From a virus (taxonomy: Duplodnaviria; Heunggongvirae; Uroviricota; Caudoviricetes): a DNA stretch of 36,433 nucleotides. Location of the stretch: the IMG/VR virus record IMGVR_UViG_3300033075_001761; one strand, given 5' to 3'. A program made the translations under genes and the position numbers. The notes beneath the pieces were generated by a model. It was not told the origin of the DNA. It saw only the letters and a program-made list of their open reading frames with translations, and made no database searches. This document shows positions 1,967 through 30,925 of the stretch, piece after piece; within the stretch, counting starts at the first letter, position 1; the number at the start of each line of letters is the position of its first letter.

Positions 1967-2650
1967 TTAAGAAGAAGCTATTTCATCAGTGATTACTGGG
2001 TCTTTCTTGTTAGCAAAGTAATGCTTAATAATCCTTTCAGATGCCTTAGAAGGCTTCATAACAGATTGAATTTCTTTTGCTTTTTCAAGCTTAGAAAGCA
2101 TGACGTATACATAAACGCGGTTAGACTTTGTAGCTGTGAACTTAGAAGCCTTAAAAATATCTTCAGCAGAGACTGGCTCCGATGATTTAGAGACAATTTC
2201 CTTGATGATTTCTAGTTTTGAGCCTCTTGGCAAAGACTTTTGTTTTTTAGGATGTTCAGGCTTGGCTTTGGCATTTTTCTTTGCTTTTGGCTTTTTGTTT
2301 ATAGCTTTTTTCTTGGCTCTATTGGCAAGAATAGATTGGAAATGATTATAAACCTTCTTGGCGATCTCGTGAATTTCTGGAGCGATGTTGTCTTCAGACC
2401 ATTCATCAAAAATCATTTTATTAACGGGTATTGTTGTATTGTTAGCAAGCCAATCAATGGAATATGTGATTGCTCTTAGCTGCCCAGAAAGCTTGTCAAA
2501 TGTGAAGAAGTCTACTTTGCAAGAGCTTTTCTTTACGCTTTTGAAGTCTTTTCCAGTCCTAAATACAAATTTTGTTTCATCGTTAGATTTTTGAAAAATC
2601 TCACCAATTCTCTGGTTGCCATGCTTGATACAGATTGCAAGTGCTTTCAT
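1967..2650 (-). CDS. Putative DNA-binding protein: N-terminal domain, Lys/Ala-rich linker, C-terminal winged-helix-like domain
   Basis: AGGAGG RBS (ctcct at about 2660-2665). Linker KKKAINKKPKAKKNAKAKPEHPKK. C-terminal KLEIIKEIVSKSSEPVSAEDIF...VYVYVMLSKLEKAKEI resembles the Fur/BlaI-type wHTH pattern. Confidence 0.65.
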   Translation of the reverse strand: MKALAICIKHGNQRIGEIFQKSNDETKFVFRTGKDFKSVKKSSCKVDFFTFDKLSGQLRAITYSIDWLANNTTIPVNKMIFDEWSEDNIAPEIHEIAKKVYNHFQSILANRAKKKAINKKPKAKKNAKAKPEHPKKQKSLPRGSKLEIIKEIVSKSSEPVSAEDIFKASKFTATKSNRVYVYVMLSKLEKAKEIQSVMKPSKASERIIKHYFANKKDPVITDEIASS

Positions 2651-2666
2651 AATATCTATCCTCCTT

Positions 2667-2695
2667 TTGTTACTAAACTCTTTGTCGGTTATAAT
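2667..2695 (+). promoter_or_regulatory. Sigma70-like promoter for the neck/tail transcript
   Basis: TTGTTA (2667-2672), 17-bp spacer, TATAAT (2690-2695), in the divergent intergenic gap 38 nt upstream of the TTG start at 2733. Confidence 0.65.
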
Positions 2696-2732
2696 TAAAA
2701 AATACTTTAGCCATTTAGGATTCGAGGTTAGC

Positions 2733-3248
2733 TTGGGCAGGTTGCGCGACGATTACGAAGTCTCATATATTCGCTGCGTTTCCGAAGAGGTTATTGACCT
2801 TTTTGGGACCGACGATGTTATTTTATATCGCTTCAACCCTTGCGATAACGCCGGAACCCGAGACCCCTTGTATGATGAGCCCACAACAACGCTCAAATAC
2901 CGTGCATACCCTATAAAGGCTCTTTATCTAGATTGGCAAGATGATTTTTTGTCTGGAAGCCAAGGATCTGAGAAAAATTTCTCAAATAAAATCTATGTTG
3001 CTTTGAACCATTTGCTGGCCGCCAACGTGCCTATCTCCTCTGATAAAGAATACATAGAAGAAGGTGATATCATTGAGCTTCACCATAGAGGCGACAAGGT
3101 TATTTATGATATTATACAGGTTGACCGTGAAGGCTACGTAAACAACAGCGATAAGTTTGTTGGTTATACCCTGGATGTAAAGCGTAACTCGAAGTTTGTT
3201 CCAGAGAGAAAAGACATTGAAATTATAGGAGAATCTTATGTCCCTTGA
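2733..3248 (+). CDS. Head-closure/neck protein, T4 gp14-like
   Basis: Start revised from 2616 to the TTG at 2733 (GAGG RBS at 2724-2727; the earlier start overlaps the divergent gene and promoter). Motifs EEVIDLFG..VILY...DPLYDE and EEGDII resemble gp14/head-closure proteins. It lies upstream of the tail genes. Confidence 0.6.
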   Translation: MGRLRDDYEVSYIRCVSEEVIDLFGTDDVILYRFNPCDNAGTRDPLYDEPTTTLKYRAYPIKALYLDWQDDFLSGSQGSEKNFSNKIYVALNHLLAANVPISSDKEYIEEGDIIELHHRGDKVIYDIIQVDREGYVNNSDKFVGYTLDVKRNSKFVPERKDIEIIGESYVP

Positions 3249-3576
3249 GAAACTTACTGAATCTCTAAAGAAATTTAACGCCATGGCCAAGGCGGCGCCG
3301 GAAACCATTACGGAAAGCTCGGAAGCCGTACAGATGCTTAAAAAGCATGAGAGCGAAGTATTTACTACTTTTGCAAATGCTATCGCGGTGGCTTTGGGCC
3401 AAGTGGAGAGCATTACGGGGTCTCAATTTGAGACGGCAAAAGATGCCCAAGAGTTTGTTGAAGAAGTTATGAAGAGCATGCGTACAAAAGGAAAATCAAG
3501 CCTTATGACTGTGCTACGCAGGTTTGATCGAGTTGGCTCTCAGCAGTTCAGTGCTCAATTCAAACGTAAGCTTTAA
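3238..3576 (+). CDS. Hypothetical helical protein (112 aa)
   Basis: GGAG RBS, overlaps the upstream stop, predicted all-helical. Contains LTES/ITES motifs. Confidence 0.7.
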   Translation: MSLEKLTESLKKFNAMAKAAPETITESSEAVQMLKKHESEVFTTFANAIAVALGQVESITGSQFETAKDAQEFVEEVMKSMRTKGKSSLMTVLRRFDRVGSQQFSAQFKRKL

Positions 3577-3596
3577 AGTCTAATCAATCAGACTTT
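3575..3596. promoter_or_regulatory. Palindromic motif copy 1 (AAAGTC TAATCAATCA GACTTT)
   Basis: Imperfect inverted repeat in the intergenic gap directly upstream of the tubulin gene. Four more copies occur in the window. Confidence 0.7.
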
Positions 3597-3620: not shown

Positions 3621-4946
3621 ATGCGTAAAAAGTTCAAAGAGTTCACGGTTGATAATCAAAGAGTCATAAGAGTTATTCGGACTCCGAATTCTGTTAGGTA
3701 CCTTTTGGTTAGAACAATAAATAATGAAGAAATTATAGAAAAAGACTTAGCTTCAATGGATGAAGTAAGGTCTTCTTTGTCTATTGAAGTACAAGTTGAA
3801 GAAAACAAGTCAGAAAGCCATGTTGTTATTGAAGAACAACCAAAGCAAACTGAAGAAGTTAAAATTCCAAAAAAGCGTGGGAGAAAAAAGATGGAATTGC
3901 CAATGATGGAAGATCTAGAAATCCAAGGCCAAGAGAAGATTGAAGACACAAAGGAGTTTGCAGTTAAATTTGGATTCCTTGGAGTTGGGCAGGGCGGAGG
4001 AAAACTATGCCAATCTTTTTATGGATTGGGTTATCGAAGGATTTTGGCCGTTAATACTACGGTCCAAGACTTTGAAGGGCTTGAATTTAAGAGCAAGCTT
4101 TTAATTGGCGACAGCATTTCTGGAGCAGGAAAAGATCCTACAGTTGGATTTAAAGCAGCCGATTCTTCCCGTGAGAAGATTCTTAGGGCTTGTAAGGATG
4201 CTTTTGGAGATGAAGTAGAACACATTATTGTGTGTACAAGTACGGGAGGAGGCTCTGGGTCTGGTTCAACGCCAGTAGCCATTGAAGTTGCGCAAGAATA
4301 TTTGAAATCTATTGGAAAAGAAGCAAAGGTTGGCGTGATTGCGTGTCTTCCAAAATCTTCTGAAGGCCAGAAGTGTGTGGACAATTCAAATCAGCTACTT
4401 CAAAAAGTTAAGCCTCTCGTTGAACAAAAGATTATCTCTCCATTCATCATTTGTGATAATGAAAAGATTTTGAAAATGTACCCAAAAGTTTCGATTGCAA
4501 AGTTCTATGAAGCTGCGAACAGAAGTATTTCTGCAATGTTCAGCTTATTTAATGAGTTGTGTGCAAAGAATTCGGCTTATCAGACTTTGGATGTTGCAGA
4601 TTATCGTTCTGTTCTAAATTCTGGCGTTATGATTTTCGGAGCAAACACAATCCAGGATGCTTCTAAATCTGAAACATTGATTGCCGAGAGCGTTGAGAAG
4701 AATATGAAGAATGGTCTTTTAGCTTCTTTGGAGCTGAAGGGAGCGACTCATGCAGGAGCAATTTTGATTGCTTCTAAAGCCATGCTTGAGTCGATTCCTC
4801 AAAGCGCATTGGACTTGAGTTTCCAAGCAATCAATAGAGTCCTTGGCGGGTCCGTTGTTCTTCATAGCGGAGTTTATGAAGGTCCAGAGAGTCTCGAAAC
4901 AAAGGCTCTTGTTTACACAATGATTGGCGGGCTAAAAGCTGGCTAA
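3621..4946 (+). CDS. Tubulin/FtsZ-family GTPase (phage tubulin-like) with N-terminal extension
   Basis: T1 loop FGFLGVGQGGGKL, GAGKDPTVG, signature TSTGGGSGSG, IICDNE, T7 loop LDVAD and terminal strand LVYTMIGG. About 110 aa precede the GTPase domain and there is no C-terminal tail. Confidence 0.93.
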   Translation: MRKKFKEFTVDNQRVIRVIRTPNSVRYLLVRTINNEEIIEKDLASMDEVRSSLSIEVQVEENKSESHVVIEEQPKQTEEVKIPKKRGRKKMELPMMEDLEIQGQEKIEDTKEFAVKFGFLGVGQGGGKLCQSFYGLGYRRILAVNTTVQDFEGLEFKSKLLIGDSISGAGKDPTVGFKAADSSREKILRACKDAFGDEVEHIIVCTSTGGGSGSGSTPVAIEVAQEYLKSIGKEAKVGVIACLPKSSEGQKCVDNSNQLLQKVKPLVEQKIISPFIICDNEKILKMYPKVSIAKFYEAANRSISAMFSLFNELCAKNSAYQTLDVADYRSVLNSGVMIFGANTIQDASKSETLIAESVEKNMKNGLLASLELKGATHAGAILIASKAMLESIPQSALDLSFQAINRVLGGSVVLHSGVYEGPESLETKALVYTMIGGLKAG

Positions 4947-4983: not shown

Positions 4984-5700
4984 ATGGCAACGATTCATGG
5001 AAGGATTGTTGCCGCGCAAAAATACGTTTTAAACAAGAGTGCTTCTATTTTTCTTGGAAACGTAAAATTGAATGGACCCAAAGATGAGTTTGGTAAAGAG
5101 TATCTAGATTCGCTTAAAATAAAGAAAATAGATGGAGATGATCCAAAGTTTGTAATTATTTTGGATGCATCTTTTTCGGCTTCATTCTCTACTGCACAGG
5201 CAAAAGGCGCAGTTGTTATATACGTTCAGGATAGTGAAAACAAAGATCTTTTAGAAGTTTTGTATAGGTACCAGCCATTTGCTATGGACTTTCTTCCTGT
5301 AAACCTTCCTATAAGCACCTTCTTTAAGAAGGTAAGAACAGATGAAATTGAAGCAATTAGAGAGCGAAATCAAAACAGCTATTCAAAACTAAAGTCTGAA
5401 CTTATTTCTTTAGGCGTTCCTTCAGAGCTTGGAGAGCAGAAAATTACATCAACAGAAGATGTTGGATTTAAGATTTTAAGATCTGAATTAGGATTAGGAG
5501 AATATCCTCCTCATTGGAAACCAGCCATCGCAAAATGGCAAACAGGAACGGATTTAAAGAACATTGCCAATGAAAACATTTTATCTAGAATACTTTTCGA
5601 TCCAAAATATACGGGATGGAAGAATATAGCTTCAGACAGAGAAGATGCTGATCCATCAATTATTGAAAATGTAAAAGAGTTTATGGAAGCGCTATTATGA
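4984..5700 (+). CDS. Putative neck/tail-completion protein (HK97 gp10-like C-terminal motif)
   Basis: RSELGLGEYPPHWKPAI resembles the E(F/Y)G...P(F/H)xxPA motif of gp10-like neck proteins. It lies upstream of the tail terminator. Confidence 0.45.
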   Translation: MATIHGRIVAAQKYVLNKSASIFLGNVKLNGPKDEFGKEYLDSLKIKKIDGDDPKFVIILDASFSASFSTAQAKGAVVIYVQDSENKDLLEVLYRYQPFAMDFLPVNLPISTFFKKVRTDEIEAIRERNQNSYSKLKSELISLGVPSELGEQKITSTEDVGFKILRSELGLGEYPPHWKPAIAKWQTGTDLKNIANENILSRILFDPKYTGWKNIASDREDADPSIIENVKEFMEALL

Positions 5701-6108: not shown

Positions 6109-6834
6109 TTGATCACACTTCTTCCACTTGGGCAGCAAAATCTAACATTACCTACTGGTAATGTATGGATTCGAGATTTCGACAAAGGCATTGTTGAGAC
6201 TATGGGAGCTGTTGTTAAGCTTGTGACTGACCCTGTTACTTGCGAAAAGAAGAATAATTATTACGTATCTATCCCAGGTGTAAATCCATTTGAAGTTCCA
6301 GTTATATTTGGGAATCCAGAGCAAGTATTCGAGAATAAAATTCTTCCAAGCATTGTTGTTATGAGAGATTCTGTTGAGTTAAATCTGTCTCGTTGGCATT
6401 CAGTTGGTCAAGAAGAGTATTACGCTGGCGTGACTGGCGGAATTTCTGGGCTTCCTCCTGGAGGAATTGTTACAGTCAACGGAGTGACTGGATACTCATA
6501 TTTGGAGACAAAAAAACAAGCTTGGCCATATGATTTTTTTTATACAATTTCTATTTATGCACGATTTGAATACGAAGCTTTGAACATGCTTAAGTATATT
6601 TTGCGTAAATATCAGCCTCACAGCAGCGTTAAGGTGATAGATTCGCTTAATGAAGTAAGGTATTATGATGTTTATAACGAAAGCTCAATTTCAGATATCA
6701 GCGAAATCGTAGACGTTGCGGATAGAACAAAAGCCTATTCAATAAATCTACGTGTTGAGGGAGAAATAGACCTCATCGATCCGGAAGTTCATCCTACTCT
6801 TTCATCACTTGAATTTAGAATGCTTACTGCCTAG
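6109..6834 (+). CDS. Tail terminator/sheath stabiliser, T4 gp15-like
   Basis: TTG start with GAGGG RBS. VPVIFGNPE...ILPSIVVMRDS...SRW matches the gp15-like VPxxY..KE...LP.I....R pattern. Immediately precedes the sheath gene. Confidence 0.6.
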   Translation: MITLLPLGQQNLTLPTGNVWIRDFDKGIVETMGAVVKLVTDPVTCEKKNNYYVSIPGVNPFEVPVIFGNPEQVFENKILPSIVVMRDSVELNLSRWHSVGQEEYYAGVTGGISGLPPGGIVTVNGVTGYSYLETKKQAWPYDFFYTISIYARFEYEALNMLKYILRKYQPHSSVKVIDSLNEVRYYDVYNESSISDISEIVDVADRTKAYSINLRVEGEIDLIDPEVHPTLSSLEFRMLTA

Positions 6835-6870: not shown

Positions 6871-8688
6871 ATGGCTGAATTTTTAAGTCCAGGGATCTTC
6901 ATCCAAGAGAAGAAGTCCCAACAACAAGCGGTTCAAGGAGTTTCTACAAGCAACTTTGCTACGGTTGGATGGTTGAGCCGTGGAGAAGAGAATAAAGCAA
7001 CGCTTGTTGGAAGCCTTTCTGAATTCTTCCGTAAGTTTGGTTCTTACTGGAAAAACTCTGACGTTCCTCTTGCTGTAACTGCGTTCTTTAACAACGGTGG
7101 GGCACGCGCATATATTGTTCGCGTTGTTCCTAGCGACGCTGTTAAAGCCTCTACAACAATTCCTACAAACCTTTGGAGTGTGAACGCAATCAGCTCTGGA
7201 GCATGGGGAAACAACGTTCGGCTAGTCCTTAAAGGAAGTCAGAATTACTATGATACAGCGACAGCAACATACTCTCGATTTGATGTAGAAGTTCAGGAAG
7301 AATCTGCTGACGGAGAAGGGGATTGGGAGATTACAGAAACTTTCTCTGAAGTTGATCTGACCGACCCTGATTCTGCTGTTTACCTTCCCATCGTATTGAA
7401 TGACGAAGAAAGCGGTTCTTCTACGGTTCGTGTTGAAGCCGTATCTGGAGGAATCCCTACTGCGTTCCTTAGCCAATCTGTAAGCGGAGAATCTATTGGA
7501 ACTGGCGCAGGAACTTCTTCGCAGCTTGTAAGCGGAACTTTGGCTCAGCCATCCGTTGCTAAGTTCACTGCTGCATTGCGAGTGAATGGAGTGACTATCG
7601 CCAAAGATGACGGCAAAGGAAAATGGAAGCTGCAAAGCGGCGTTGGGTATACTGGCGTTACAGGAACTCTGAACTACACAACTGGTGTTTTTTCGGCAAC
7701 AGTAGTTCCTGGCCCTGGATCGGGCGAAGCTATTACGATGGATTATTACAAAGCTGGAGCTTCTAGCCAATCGTATGAGCTTTCTGGTGGAGTTGACGGA
7801 ACTTCGGTTGGACGCGCTGAAGTAACTGCGCCAGAACTTGAAGAAGACATTGTTGGGCTTTATGCATTGAACAAGATTGACGAGATCTTGAACATTGGTC
7901 TTCCAGACTTTCCTGGAGACTCGCTTGTTCATAGTGATTTGATTACTTACTGCCAAAACCGAAAAGACTGCTTTGCAATCTTGGACACTGAATTCAATAT
8001 CGACGCACAAGATGCCGTAAACTACAAAACAGTAACGCTTGGAAGCTTGAGCTCTTACGCCGCTATTTATTACCCTCAGGTTGTGATTGCAGACCCTCTT
8101 CGCAACGGACGTGGCCGTACAATGAGCTGCGTAGGGCATGTGGCTGGTGTGTATGCTCGAACCGACAACGATAGGAACGTTGCCAAGGCTCCTGCTGGAG
8201 TTATCGATGGCGCATTGAATTTTGCCATCAAACTAGAACGCCAGCTTACAAAGGCAGAGCGAGATACTGTGTATCCTCGTAACGTAAACATCCTTCGTGA
8301 AGATGCCATTGTTGGCCGTTGCGTTTGGGGTTCTAGAACTTTGCAAACCGTTGGCGATTTTATCCAGGTGCCTCACCGTCGTTTGTTCATGTTCCTTGAA
8401 AAGAGCGTGTTCAATAACACTCACGATCTTGTGTTTGAGCCAATCACAGAGGCTTTGTTCAATACGATTAATCTTCGCTTGGACGGCTTTATGAGTGTTC
8501 TTACTGGCCTTGGTTATTTTGCAAGCAACGTTCCTGCCGAATCGTATAGAATTATTGTTGATGAAACGAACAACACTCCACAAACAATTGCTCAACGACT
8601 TGTGATTGTTGACTTGTTGGTGGCAGTTTCGTCTCCCGCAGAGTTTATTCAATTTAGATTTGAAAGATCACTAAATACTCTGGGTTGA
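6871..8688 (+). CDS. Contractile tail sheath protein
   Basis: N-terminal MAEFLSPGIFIQE, AFFNNGGARAYIVRV, YAAIYYPQV, GHVAGVYARTD...VAKAPAG, VWGSRTL, RRLFMFLEKS and PAEFIQFRF are all hallmark sheath motifs. Confidence 0.97.
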   Translation: MAEFLSPGIFIQEKKSQQQAVQGVSTSNFATVGWLSRGEENKATLVGSLSEFFRKFGSYWKNSDVPLAVTAFFNNGGARAYIVRVVPSDAVKASTTIPTNLWSVNAISSGAWGNNVRLVLKGSQNYYDTATATYSRFDVEVQEESADGEGDWEITETFSEVDLTDPDSAVYLPIVLNDEESGSSTVRVEAVSGGIPTAFLSQSVSGESIGTGAGTSSQLVSGTLAQPSVAKFTAALRVNGVTIAKDDGKGKWKLQSGVGYTGVTGTLNYTTGVFSATVVPGPGSGEAITMDYYKAGASSQSYELSGGVDGTSVGRAEVTAPELEEDIVGLYALNKIDEILNIGLPDFPGDSLVHSDLITYCQNRKDCFAILDTEFNIDAQDAVNYKTVTLGSLSSYAAIYYPQVVIADPLRNGRGRTMSCVGHVAGVYARTDNDRNVAKAPAGVIDGALNFAIKLERQLTKAERDTVYPRNVNILREDAIVGRCVWGSRTLQTVGDFIQVPHRRLFMFLEKSVFNNTHDLVFEPITEALFNTINLRLDGFMSVLTGLGYFASNVPAESYRIIVDETNNTPQTIAQRLVIVDLLVAVSSPAEFIQFRFERSLNTLG

Positions 8689-8732: not shown

Positions 8733-9590
8733 ATGCCAAAATTAAACACGGAAGACGATCTAGCTATTTCTGAATTATATAAAGAAGGAAAAAATTTTAA
8801 CGATATTTTAAGAATTACAGGAGCTGGAACTTATAGAGTAAAAAGAGCTTTAAACAAGTATTCAGTTCCAGTAAGAGAAAATAAAAAAAGAAAGATTCTT
8901 TCACTAGAACAAAGAAAAGAGCTTTGTAACTTATACGTTTCTGATTCTCATAGCTTTCAAGATCTTATGGTAAAATATGACGTTTCTTCGATTGTAGTTA
9001 CAGGATGTCTAAAGGAGTTTGGTCTTAAGGCCAAAAGACATGGCTTTTCTAAACTCAAAAAAGACTCTGTTAAATTCAAAAATATATTAAAAGATTTTTA
9101 CGAATTAAAAACATTTTCTGGGTTAGCTAAAAAATATGGCGTTTCTAGAGATGCGATAACACAAGCATTGAAGTTGCACGGATTATCAGAGGAACAAATC
9201 CTAATGGATTCTATGTTTTCTTTTAAAAAAGAAGATGGTTCTATTATATATATGAGGTCTGATAATGAAGTGATATTTGCAGAAAACCTTAAAAACGCAG
9301 AATTGCATTGGAAGTATGAAGCATTTTCTATTCAATTAGATGAAAAATCTTTTTACACTCCAGATTTTTGTATATATGATAGAAATGAAAAACCAAGATT
9401 TTTGATTGATTGCAAATCAAAAAGGGCAACATTTAGATTTAAAAATCATAACGGAAGAAAAAGTTCTTCAGATGAGGATATTCGTTCCATCATTACAAAA
9501 TCATTCCCAGGGTCTGAGTTTATAATAGTTCTTCCTGACCATCCACATATTATCGTAGCGGGCATTAAATCAATTTTGTCTTATAAATAA
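8733..9590 (+). CDS. Free-standing putative homing endonuclease: three HTH-like repeats plus a PD-(D/E)xK (TnsA-like) nuclease domain
   Basis: Three ~45-aa repeats (e.g. FSGLAKKYGVSRDAITQALKLHG). C-terminal YMRSDNE...WKYE...YTPDF...LIDCKS. Markedly more AT-rich than the flanking sheath gene and inserted between the sheath and tube genes. Confidence 0.75.
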   Translation: MPKLNTEDDLAISELYKEGKNFNDILRITGAGTYRVKRALNKYSVPVRENKKRKILSLEQRKELCNLYVSDSHSFQDLMVKYDVSSIVVTGCLKEFGLKAKRHGFSKLKKDSVKFKNILKDFYELKTFSGLAKKYGVSRDAITQALKLHGLSEEQILMDSMFSFKKEDGSIIYMRSDNEVIFAENLKNAELHWKYEAFSIQLDEKSFYTPDFCIYDRNEKPRFLIDCKSKRATFRFKNHNGRKSSSDEDIRSIITKSFPGSEFIIVLPDHPHIIVAGIKSILSYK

Positions 9591-9706
9591 AGATAATGCC
9601 AATCTGTTTTTTCATCAATATATAGGTTACGATTGAGTTGACTTTCATTTTGTAGAAATGAAACAATATGTAAGATCGTTACTTTAGATCTTTGGAGAAA
9701 TAACAC

Positions 9707-10261
9707 ATGGCACGCTCTAGTTCGACAGATTACTTTTCTAACTACAGGTTTTTGGTTGCCCTTACGGACTCCAAAGATCCTACGAACGTGAGAATTCAGG
9801 GCGGTTTTTCTACCGTAACAATGCCTGAGCTTACGCTCGAAATGATGATGTATAAAGAAGGGCAAATGGAATATGTACGAAAATTCCCTGGCAACCCTTC
9901 TTTTAATGATGTGACTTTAACTCGTGGCGTTACAAAGTCGAATACAGACTTTGAAAAATGGGTTCGCGCTGGAGCTTCTGGCCAAGAATATCGTGGCGAC
10001 ATGATTATTTACTTGGTTCATAGGGACCAGTTTGTAGCCTCAGACAATTCTGATACAAACAACTCGGCTGACGCTAATGGTTATAAGAAGCTTGCCGGAT
10101 ACAATGCAGGGCTTCGTATTTCTATGAAAAATGCGTTTGCCACTAGAGTTAAATTTGGATCTGACATGGATGCACAAGGGAACGAAGTGTCTATGGAAGA
10201 AATCGACGTTGCGTATGAGTATGCAACGATTGAAAAGGGTAGTTTTAGCATCGCTCAATAA
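9707..10261 (+). CDS. Tail tube protein 1 (T4 gp19/Afp1-like family)
   Basis: YRFLV...GGFSTVTMPELTLE...YKEG...RKFPG...FNDVTLTRGV...FEKW...DMDAQGNEVSMEEIDVAYE. Confidence 0.93.
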   Translation: MARSSSTDYFSNYRFLVALTDSKDPTNVRIQGGFSTVTMPELTLEMMMYKEGQMEYVRKFPGNPSFNDVTLTRGVTKSNTDFEKWVRAGASGQEYRGDMIIYLVHRDQFVASDNSDTNNSADANGYKKLAGYNAGLRISMKNAFATRVKFGSDMDAQGNEVSMEEIDVAYEYATIEKGSFSIAQ

Positions 10262-12322: not shown

Positions 12323-12913
12323 ATGGCAAGATCTCAAATCCAAGATTATTTAGCGGTTAACAAATTCCTTGTATTGGATGTTTCTTTAACACTTCCGCCA
12401 GTGTTGCTTCCTGTTTTTGGATTCAGATCTGTTTCTATTCCGCAACTGTCAGTTACATATAGACAGATTAAAGAGGGTAATTATGAATACCCAAGGTATG
12501 CAGGGGTAGAGAGGGCTGAAGTTAGTAATGTAACTTTGGAGCAAGGAGTGTCCATTATAAATAGTGATTTTTATGATTGGATACGGAAAGCAGTAACCGG
12601 AAATATACCAGCAAAGAATCTTTTGATTATACAGTTTCACAGGGCAGCCAACGATGCTTTAAAGGCCCAAGGAGGCATAGCTGCATTGCCTGCAACATTG
12701 TTTAGCGCACCTGTATCTGTGGCAGGGCGTTTGGCGTCTGGGTTCAATCTAGAGTTTATTTCAAGACTTCCAGGGCGCGGATACCTTTTAAAGAATTGTA
12801 GGCCCACGAGCTATAGACCTGGAACGGATTTAAATGCAGAGTCATCAGAGATAAGTATTGCTTCTCTAGAGTTGGTTGTGGAAGAGTTTGACGAATTCAG
12901 CTATGGGATTTAG
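12323..12913 (+). CDS. Tail tube protein 2/tube initiator (gp19/gp54/Afp5-like)
   Basis: KFLV...GFRSVSIPQLSV...IKEGNYEYP...NVTLEQGV...DFYDWI...LKNCRPTSY...DLNAESSEISIASLELVVE. It is a paralog of tube 1 with a ~40-aa insertion. Confidence 0.85.
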   Translation: MARSQIQDYLAVNKFLVLDVSLTLPPVLLPVFGFRSVSIPQLSVTYRQIKEGNYEYPRYAGVERAEVSNVTLEQGVSIINSDFYDWIRKAVTGNIPAKNLLIIQFHRAANDALKAQGGIAALPATLFSAPVSVAGRLASGFNLEFISRLPGRGYLLKNCRPTSYRPGTDLNAESSEISIASLELVVEEFDEFSYGI

Positions 12914-13357: not shown

Positions 13358-13563
13358 TGGAGCAAAAGTCTAATCGATTGGACTTGTTTGACCAAAAGGT
13401 TCGGATTAACTTCTGGCTTTCTAGAAGGCTTTTTGACGATGTGAATGATATATGTAGGGAAGAAGAAAAGAGCATCAGCGATGTGATACGCGAAGCTCTT
13501 AAGGACTACACTAGAAAATACAAGATTAAGCAAAAATCCATCGAGTCAAAGTTACAAACATAA
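13357..13563 (+). CDS. Ribbon-helix-helix (CopG/Arc/MetJ-like) DNA-binding protein
   Basis: KVRINFWLS (alternating beta-strand), RRLFDDVNDICREEE (helix A), KSISDVIREALKDY (helix B with the S.S..IR.AL motif). Confidence 0.85.
   Translation: MEQKSNRLDLFDQKVRINFWLSRRLFDDVNDICREEEKSISDVIREALKDYTRKYKIKQKSIESKLQT
13364..13385. promoter_or_regulatory. Palindromic motif copy 2 (AAAAGTC TAATCGATTG GACTT) over the 5' end of the RHH gene
   Basis: Near-perfect inverted repeat occupying approximately codons 3-10 of the RHH gene. Confidence 0.7.
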
Positions 13564-21847: not shown

Positions 21848-21869
21848 AAGTCCAATCGGTTAGACTTTT
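21846..21869. promoter_or_regulatory. Palindromic motif copy 3 (AAAAGTC CAATCGGTTA GACTTTT)
   Basis: Intergenic, between gp25 and baseplate J, ending at the GAGG RBS. Confidence 0.7.
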
Positions 21870-28348: not shown

Positions 28349-28370
28349 AAAATTCCAATTGATTAGACTT
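28349..28370. promoter_or_regulatory. Palindromic motif copy 4 (AAAATTC CAATTGATTA GACTT)
   Basis: Intergenic, immediately upstream of the GGAG RBS of the 28381 gene. The reverse complement reads AAGTC TAATCAATTG GAATT. Confidence 0.6.
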
Positions 28371-30872: not shown

Positions 30873-30925
30873 TTTTTTGAGAACGTTTTTGGTGTAATAT
30901 AATTAAGTCTAATCAATTAGACATT
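30869..30925 (+). promoter_or_regulatory. Possible sigma70-like promoter followed by palindromic motif copy 5 (30905-30925, AAGTC TAATCAATTA GACATT)
   Basis: TATAAT at 30898-30903 with TTGAGA at 30877-30882 (15-bp spacer), or TTGATT-18 bp-TGTAAT. The palindrome begins 2 nt after TATAAT. Confidence 0.55.

Follow-up and report, generated by a model that had tools for sequence, protein, structure and literature searches.

A tail-less phage tubulin with a conserved N-terminal module and a conserved internal Shine-Dalgarno sequence, encoded among neck and tail genes

To our knowledge, phage tubulins have been studied in two settings only, the spindles built from PhuZ in jumbo phages that form a nucleus (Chimalliviridae) and the TubZ partition systems of plasmids and prophages, and in both the C-terminal tail is central to assembly or to cargo binding. 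PhuZ transports capsids and places the phage DNA, which sets a precedent for a cytoskeleton encoded by a phage. TubZ binds partners (TubR and TubY) through its C-terminal helix and tail (PMC5322520), and the C-terminal acidic-knuckle tail of PhuZ stabilizes the protofilament (PMC3678025). We present here a tubulin gene of a different build, located on the + strand of a 36,433-nucleotide stretch of DNA from an uncultivated freshwater tailed phage (IMG/VR record IMGVR_UViG_3300033075_001761; the whole stretch is referred to below as the window). The protein has no C-terminal tail, carries an N-terminal module that is conserved in its clade, and has an internal in-frame start preceded by a strong Shine-Dalgarno (SD) sequence. 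The reading we favor, at about one chance in two, is a filament-forming tubulin made as two isoforms, the longer bearing an N-terminal adaptor, and expressed late by a T4-like myovirus of ~150 kb that forms no nucleus.

The gene and the elements of its core are as follows.

3621..4946, + strand: tubulin/FtsZ-superfamily gene, proposed long isoform of 441 residues (open frame, Pfam Tubulin, AlphaFold2 model, fold matches to FtsZ, TubZ, and CetZ).
3951..4934, + strand: tubulin/FtsZ core, residues 111-438, GTPase and activation domain, ending at the last β-strand (predicted local distance difference test [pLDDT] score >94, Foldseek).
3981..4001, + strand: T1 nucleotide-binding loop GVGQGGG, residues 121-127 (G121, G123, Q124, and G126 invariant in the family alignment).
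4245..4265, + strand: T4 tubulin signature GGGSGSG, residues 209-215 (G210, G211, G213, and G215 invariant in the family alignment).
4587..4601, + strand: T7 synergy loop LDVAD, residues 323-327 (aligned by phmmer to N-V-D-F-A-D of M. jannaschii FtsZ).

By its motifs and predicted fold, the protein is a catalytically intact GTPase of the tubulin/FtsZ superfamily. Pfam Tubulin (PF00091) matches residues 120-287 with an E value of 1.3e-13 and 52 bits, against a curated cutoff of 33, and phmmer searches of PDB returned archaeal FtsZ (5e-17) and RepX (2e-14). The acids of the T7 loop, which in this superfamily complete the active site of the neighboring subunit, are retained across the family, with D324 invariant and D327 more than 90% conserved in the family alignments. 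An AlphaFold2 model built from 140 family sequences is confident over residues 110-438 (pLDDT >94) and has the two-domain tubulin/FtsZ fold (GTPase domain, H7, and activation domain); its final core strand spans residues 428-438, after which 3 residues remain before the C terminus. Foldseek comparison of the model with PDB gave FtsZ at 7e-25, Bacillus cereus TubZ/RepX at a TMq of 0.64, and CetZ2 at a root mean square deviation of 2.6 Å and a TMq of 0.62, with E values of about 1e-23 for this group of matches. There were 500 matches at E values of ≤1e-3, and among the matches listed, all were FtsZ, TubZ, or CetZ. The initial annotation, a model's reading of the sequence, had named the three core motifs and an abrupt C terminus, both of which are confirmed here.

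Within the superfamily, the closest solved relatives are RepX and TubZ. A profile of the protein's family ranked RepX first in PDB (4ei7, 5.5e-33), followed by CetZ (1.6e-25), archaeal FtsZ (~1e-24), c-st TubZ (7e-21), and TubZ-Bt (4e-17), and PhuZ was not among its top 60 PDB matches. The PHROG PhuZ model (phrog_4733) matched 70 residues only, with an E value of 1.1e-3. Among viral structure models, the best Foldseek match was an "FtsZ" of an uncultured Caudovirales phage (1.7e-34), and PhuZ models scored 1e-10 to 1e-12 with a TM of ~0.45. Weak Pfam TubZ-like_C matches occur among family members. Trees were built with nine references (four PhuZ, RepX, c-st TubZ, two bacterial FtsZ, and one haloarchaeal FtsZ-like protein), a set without CetZ, BtubA/B, and eukaryotic tubulin. 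PhuZ formed a separate clade outside the family with a support of 100. The long branches of RepX and c-st TubZ attached to the family radiation at its base, where the deep nodes have no resolved order. By profile and tree, the protein is thus a member of a tubulin family of uncultivated phages related to TubZ/RepX, with a deep topology that is unsettled. Identity as PhuZ was rejected on the weak phrog_4733 match, the profile rank beyond the top 60, and the separate clade at a support of 100. The initial annotation had set the protein in the frame of PhuZ, which gives way here to TubZ/RepX. It had also considered that the protein might nest within ordinary PhuZ or TubZ clades with similar N termini; in the phylogeny, the protein falls in a clade of its own family, and its N-terminal module is absent elsewhere.

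The family comprises 83 clusters in a word-indexed search (E values of 1e-38 to 1e-155) and 183 representatives at 50% identity in an exhaustive search (E < 1e-30), and at least 541 IMG/VR contigs carry a member. No member was found in 50,697 GenBank phage records, where tblastn with the protein returned only contaminating host FtsZ. The phiKZ PhuZ sequence matched 194 phages by tblastn, none of them carrying this family, and 20 kb of the window had no megablast match to GenBank phages. A plasmid search returned only RepX and FtsZ at ~25% identity, and no description of the family was found in the literature searched. All of the genomic contexts of family members that were examined are phage, and the protein is 21 to 28% identical to bacterial FtsZ. 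On sequence comparison, the protein descends from a family specific to phages rather than from a host ftsZ. Inteins with a LAGLIDADG homing endonuclease are present in several family proteins (P0089, P0102, P0106, P0144, P0145, and P0198; 745 to 961 residues), two of which (P0089 and P0145) match Pfam Intein_splicing and LAGLIDADG_3. In P0089, the sole sequence inspected for the insertion site, the intein lies directly after the GGG of the T4 signature loop; inteins typically occupy essential catalytic sites.

Most members of this family have a C-terminal tail. In 232 family proteins, a median of 20 residues follow the last core glycine, with 15 to 25 or more in most, and the tail has the consensus P-x-x-R-L-x-E-L-…-G-L. 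In the protein described here and its 11 closest clusters (41 to 97% identity), all 12 have only 0 to 7 residues past that glycine. The 12 clusters are monophyletic (FastTree, 99; IQ-TREE SH-aLRT, 99). Because this clade is nested among lineages bearing tails of 11 to 24 residues and its sister group (P0088, P0013, and the L017 protein) is partly tail-less, two of the three lacking a tail, the tree places tail loss as derived and slightly older than the clade. Three distant family members (P0080, P0082, and P0083, on contigs of 122 to 236 kb) have a longer tail ending F-L/F-G-I/V-D-D, unlike the rest of the family.

The tail-less proteins share a second trait at the opposite end, where three elements precede or open the core.

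3627..3743, + strand: N-terminal β-module, residues 3-41, consensus K-x-F-x-V-D ... K-x-I (AlphaFold2 strands, module hidden Markov model [HMM], specific to the tail-less clade).
3744..3890, + strand: disordered linker, acidic and then basic (PKKRGRKK) (pLDDT of 34 to 68, composition, variable in the clade alignment).
3891..3923, + strand: family-wide N-terminal motif MELPMMEDLEI, consensus D/E-F/L-P-x-L/M-D/E-D/E-L (three alignments; Pro94 invariant in the clade).

In the AlphaFold2 model, β-strands at residues 5-10, 14-21, and 24-32 (pLDDT of 67 to 76) are followed by a helix at 46-52 and by disorder from residue 54 to ~100. Residues 33-82 are acidic (14 D+E versus 5 K+R), and residues 83-90 form the basic patch PKKRGRKK. 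A module of ~35 residues (consensus K-x-F-x-V-D…K-x-I…G) is carried by 12/12 clade members, with HMM E values of 1e-11 to 1e-15; the HMM has no match in 220 other family proteins or in any other open reading frame (ORF) of the window and the related phage sequences, 1.28 Mb in total. The module seemed to be missing from P0006 through a miscalled start, and an in-frame ATG 39 codons upstream gives MFKKNFVIDR…. The linker ranges from ~10 to ~150 residues in the clade and is not conserved in sequence, and the basic patch is limited to this protein and its 95% relative. In the sister lineage, an 88-residue ORF (L100, 8318-8584, + strand) has a marginal match to the module HMM (E = 0.055); if this match is real, the module may have been a separate small protein before it was fused to tubulin.

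The β-strands, acidic linker, and basic patch that the initial annotation had described in the ~110 N-terminal residues are all present, the patch being the part that is not conserved in relatives. Its proposal of an architecture distinct from those of PhuZ, TubZ, and FtsZ agrees with the joint occurrence of tail loss and module in 12/12 clade members, derived within a tailed family. With the module present in 12/12 members of the clade and 0/220 proteins elsewhere in the family, the module of the extension is also conserved, contrary to the unconserved stretch that had been considered.

The third trait of the clade is a ribosome-binding site (RBS) between module and core.

3879..3883, + strand: internal SD sequence GGGAG, 7 nt upstream of an in-frame ATG (free energy [ΔG] of the anti-SD duplex, -7.3 kcal/mol).
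3891..4946, + strand: proposed short isoform, residues 91-441, 351 residues, from the ancestral family start (SD and start codon kept in 7/7 clade loci).

A methionine stands just ahead of the D/E-F/L-P motif in 9/12 clade proteins, and short family members start exactly at the motif (for example, P0088, MAKSGFDLPDM…). In 7/7 clade loci with DNA, an in-frame ATG or GTG lies 0 to 3 codons before the motif with an SD sequence 6 to 8 nt ahead of it (GGGAG, GGAGGA, GAGGAG, AAGGAG, AAGGAGGAG), and ΔG values for the duplex with the anti-SD range from -7.3 to -11.4 kcal/mol. The residues encoded at this site differ by locus (RGRKK, GGKK, RGEKK, KELAR, KGEN, QGGD, and KGEVK). For comparison, the remaining internal ATG/GTG codons in these genes, 104 in all, have a mean ΔG of -2.1 ± 1.9, with 1.9% at or below -7, and for 286 internal ATG/GTG codons in ORFs of the window the mean is -1.8 and 1.4% reach -7.3 or lower. 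Annotated starts of the window, 33 in number, have a median of -6.1, from which it follows that the host uses SD sites; this median is weaker than the internal SD of the tubulin gene (-7.3). The long-form starts, at -0.9 to -6.8, are weaker than the internal start in every locus, and the gene caller took the internal start for P0006. In L017, of the sister lineage, the SD and methionine at the motif score -8.7 versus -0.9 for the TTG of the longest ORF, and by this comparison the motif-adjacent start is probably the true one there. Because the ancestral start and a strong RBS are kept in every clade member examined, one gene probably gives both a long product (module, linker, and core) and a short one (core). 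The SD at 3879-3883 falls inside the basic-patch codons, so a reason other than protein function is available for the patch. In-frame gene pairs from internal starts are found in T7 gp4A/4B, CheA-L/S, ClpB, and IF2, and we know of none for a tubulin/FtsZ homolog.

Two other accounts of this start were weighed. In the first, which we consider unlikely, the 441-residue protein is the sole product, with module and linker on every subunit, and the internal SD and methionine are a relic, a translational pause, or an enhancer. The continuous frame and the in-frame retention of the module in 12/12 proteins are compatible with this account, as is the coupling of some long-form starts to the upstream stop, from which initiation can be efficient without an SD. 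The SD is nevertheless kept in 7/7 loci although the cores are only 44 to 65% identical and the linker residues are unconserved, which points to selection on an RNA signal, and it beats both the annotated start in every locus and the median real start of the window. In the second and far less probable account, translation starts at Met91 (351 residues) and the upstream 270 nt are a leader that is open by chance. The strongest RBS does lie at the internal start, which the gene caller chose for P0006, and the in-frame upstream stretch of the sister lineage is probably noncoding. This account is opposed by the protein-level conservation of the module (HMM E values of 1e-11 to 1e-15, 12/12), by the lack of any stop between module and core despite linkers of ~10 to ~150 residues, and by the folding of the module as a β-meander in the model.

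The window is the tail module of a T4-like myovirus, with sheath, two gp19-like tubes, gp15-like protein, baseplate hub, wedge, gp25-like protein, tape measure, and fibers, and a gp13-like gene lies ~6 kb upstream on the source contig. The genes that surround the tubulin are as follows.

2733..3248, + strand: gp14-type neck (head-to-tail joining) protein, 171 residues (42 to 47% identical in 6 clade loci; atlas and fold matches).
3238..3576, + strand: 112-residue ORF directly upstream of the tubulin gene (C-terminal domain of ~85 residues recurs in longer proteins of the same slot in 3 loci).
4984..5700, + strand: conserved downstream flank, 238 residues, faintly HK97-gp10-like (homologs in all clade loci; PF04883 at E = 0.08 only).
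6109..6834, + strand: gp15-like tail sheath stabilizer/terminator (weak matches to PF16724, 1.5e-4, and phrog_227, 4e-4; 39 to 59% identical in relatives).
6871..8688, + strand: tail sheath (phrog_23, 1.1e-58; PF04984).

The 2733-3248 protein has no Pfam match by sequence and falls with structure-atlas clusters of Pfam T4_neck-protein and Phage_H_T_join_2 (scores of 0.93 to 0.94). Its model (pLDDT of 60) matches almost only phage neck proteins (Chi, Z = 9.0; Pam3, Z = 9.0; T4 gp13/gp14 complex, Z = 8.8), with T4 neck entries at E values of ~2e-3 in Foldseek. BLASTP relates the 112-residue ORF at 36 to 39% identity to proteins of L003 (353 residues, 8908-9969), L103 (241 residues, 415-1140), and L104 (326 residues, 2462-3442); the gene in this slot may encode a tubulin partner or may simply be a variable part of the neck module. 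The neighbors of 112, 238, and 136 residues have no significant Pfam or PHROG family and no helix-turn-helix (HTH) or TubR-like match, and the structure atlas held no match for the 238-residue protein.

Gene order is the same in 7/7 readable clade contexts (the window, L003, L006, L102, L103, L104, and L105): a protein of ~165 residues, a variable slot, tubulin, a protein of 190 to 273 residues, one of 106 to 136 residues, gp15-like protein, sheath, and tube. The sheaths of these loci are 53 to 60% identical. Overlap of the tubulin gene with its upstream or downstream neighbor, by ATGA or by 14 to 23 nt, is seen in most relatives (L006, 1686-1689; L003, 11358-11380; L102, 3620-3633; L104, 4627-4643; L105, 1355-1370), and the downstream flank overlaps the tubulin stop codon, where the window has gaps of 38 to 44 nt instead. 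Such overlaps imply translational coupling within the neck operon. With the neck fold matches on one side and the PF16724 and phrog_227 matches on the other, the position between gp14-like and gp15-like genes given by the initial annotation is supported with moderate confidence. In the sister lineage (L017 and L100), the tubulin occupies the equivalent slot between homologs of both flanks. The distant, tail-bearing tubulin of L007 lies in a replication module with helicases, primase, and DNA polymerase III α, the distant tubulin of L101 adjoins a T4-type portal, and other distant members are in other contexts.

The neighboring tail genes have features of their own. Two diverged gp19-like tube paralogs (9707-10261 and 12323-12913, + strand; ~27% mutual identity) are both kept in related phages. 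Between sheath and tube, a 285-residue ORF (8733-9590, + strand) has HNH-endonuclease/DNA-binding PHROG matches; its homolog has the same place in L003 and is absent from L006, L102, and L104, as expected of a mobile homing endonuclease.

One further element lies directly upstream of the tubulin gene.

3576..3595, + strand: 20-nt palindrome AAGTCTAATCAATCAGACTT (AAGTCTRATYRATYAGACTT) directly past the stop codon of the upstream ORF; the window has five such copies, dispersed over intergenic gaps.

The copies are at 3576-3595, 13366-13385, 21848-21867, 28351-28370, and 30905-30924 (5 in the window versus 0.03 expected), each in an intergenic gap of the late operon, close behind a stop codon on the + strand, and the palindrome was not found upstream of homologous tubulin genes. 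It is probably operon punctuation, in the form of an RNA hairpin, a terminator, or a late regulatory site. A centromere like tubC was considered and rejected on the five dispersed intergenic copies and the absence at homologous loci. The same observations bear on a type III partition or positioning system like TubZRC, in which the tubulin would move phage DNA through a DNA-binding adaptor with the palindrome as its centromere. To this reading, for which RepX/TubZ as the closest solved relative, a palindrome directly upstream, and distant tail-bearing members in replication modules all speak, we assign little probability: the tail by which TubZ binds TubR is absent (PMC5322520), the palindrome recurs in five dispersed copies through the late operon and is missing at homologous loci, the adjacent ORFs lack an HTH/TubR-like family match, and the gene lies amid neck and tail genes in 7/7 contexts.

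Metagenomes of freshwater, aquatic, sludge, and wastewater origin contain the phage, in 11 studies altogether. Its nearest complete relative is L017, a 157-kb genome with direct terminal repeats and a CheckV completeness of 100%. No chimallin match was found in L017 with a single-protein query of limited sensitivity, and the multisubunit RNA polymerase match there was only subthreshold and broken by stops. Neither of the two nucleus-associated markers that the initial annotation had proposed to seek was therefore matched in this relative.

An antagonist of host division, in which a tail-less FtsZ mimic copolymerizes with or caps host FtsZ without a membrane tether and blocks cytokinesis late in infection, is very unlikely. 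In its favor, the fold is equally near FtsZ and TubZ, no C-terminal anchor peptide is present, and FtsZ without its C-terminal peptide is dominant negative. Against it, identity to bacterial FtsZ is just 21 to 28%, the protein comes from a family specific to phages rather than from the ftsZ of a host, and the conserved N-terminal peptide and added module would be left unexplained.

In the favored dual-isoform reading, the TubZ/RepX-related tubulin most likely assembles head to tail like its relatives, into filaments that depend on GTP and arise late in infection. It would be coexpressed with the genes for neck and tail in a T4-like myovirus whose genome is roughly 150 kb and which makes no phage nucleus. 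The clade would have lost the C-terminal helix and tail and gained, upstream of the ancestral start codon, a β-module on a variable disordered linker. Retention of that start with its strong RBS would then yield two products. The short form (residues 91-441), beginning with the D/E-F/L-P peptide, would be the abundant, pure polymer subunit; the long form (441 residues), less abundant, would coassemble with it and expose the β-module at the end of a flexible tether, as a substoichiometric adaptor or anchor for a partner. The function of the lost tail must be either absent or supplied elsewhere, and the candidates are the family-wide D/E-F/L-P peptide and the clade-specific β-module. It is only through coexpression that neck, tail, or capsid components suggest themselves as cargo.

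Several points weigh against this reading. In the tree, the deep nodes that separate TubZ, RepX, FtsZ, and this family lack a resolved order. The β-module is modeled at a modest pLDDT of 67 to 76, and a structure-atlas search with residues 1-55 gave generic small-β matches only, with scores of ≤0.76 and no recognizable relatives. The SD may have been retained as a relic or for another role, and no RNA runs with the window sequence were found. A two-copy complex prediction for residues 85-441 scored 0.00 and is evidence neither way. Finally, AAA ATPases, a DNA methyltransferase, and an endolysin share the slot with the tubulin in the sister lineage. Since the slot takes nonstructural cargo, position supports late coexpression more than a structural role. 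The hint of a part in virion assembly, which the initial annotation had drawn from gene position, accordingly keeps the neck/tail placement in 7/7 contexts on its side and loses force as evidence through the nonstructural genes of the sister slot. The other functions that it had suggested, a cargo or adaptor role for the extension, capsid trafficking, and a block on host division, are candidates only. A further extension, which we regard as doubtful, is that a midsized, nonnucleus phage uses a tubulin cytoskeleton in virion morphogenesis. The filaments would consist of the short isoform, and the β-module of the sparse long isoform would capture the membrane or a component of the neck, tail, or capsid. 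The face of the protofilament that bears the tether would have changed from C-terminal to N-terminal, and alternative initiation would set how densely tethers are placed. We know of no tubulin/FtsZ homolog for which an N-terminal tether of this kind has been described.

The clade shows that a tubulin can drop its tail entirely and yet stay under strong selection. Its parent family, on at least 541 IMG/VR contigs, is abundant and has no cultured member among GenBank phages. If the favored reading is true, phage cytoskeletons extend to tailed phages of ordinary size, the clade is a natural experiment on tether placement in a tubulin-family filament, and dual initiation is a simple control of adaptor stoichiometry.

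Compared with known systems, the family is most like RepX/TubZ of Bacillus plasmids (4ei7; TubZ-Bt, 2xka/3m89) and TubZ of Clostridium phage c-st (3v3t/4xcq) in profile, the fold matches as well (TMq of 0.64), and a polymerization-dependent GTPase is presumed in common. The protein differs from these in having no H11 helix, C-terminal tail, or adjacent TubR or tubC, in an identity of ~21 to 25%, in its place in a late neck/tail operon rather than a replication/partition locus, and in its N-terminal module, linker, and probable internal start. Like PhuZ (phiKZ gp39 and 201phi2-1 gp59), it is a phage-encoded protein of the tubulin superfamily; unlike PhuZ, it has no acidic-knuckle C-terminal tail, and its nearest complete genome, at 157 kb, has no chimallin match to the single-protein query and only the subthreshold, stop-interrupted multisubunit RNA polymerase match. 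The paired starts resemble those of T7 gp4A/4B-type genes, in which a strong internal SD and in-frame start give an N-truncated second product; for this tubulin, such a product is predicted from sequence only. FtsZ and CetZ gave the highest Foldseek scores, and the core ends at the last strand in FtsZ and in this protein alike. The protein lacks the C-terminal peptide by which FtsZ binds membrane anchors, is phage borne, and belongs to a separate family. Its disordered linker and small terminal element recall the C-terminal linker and peptide of FtsZ, but with the tether at the N terminus.

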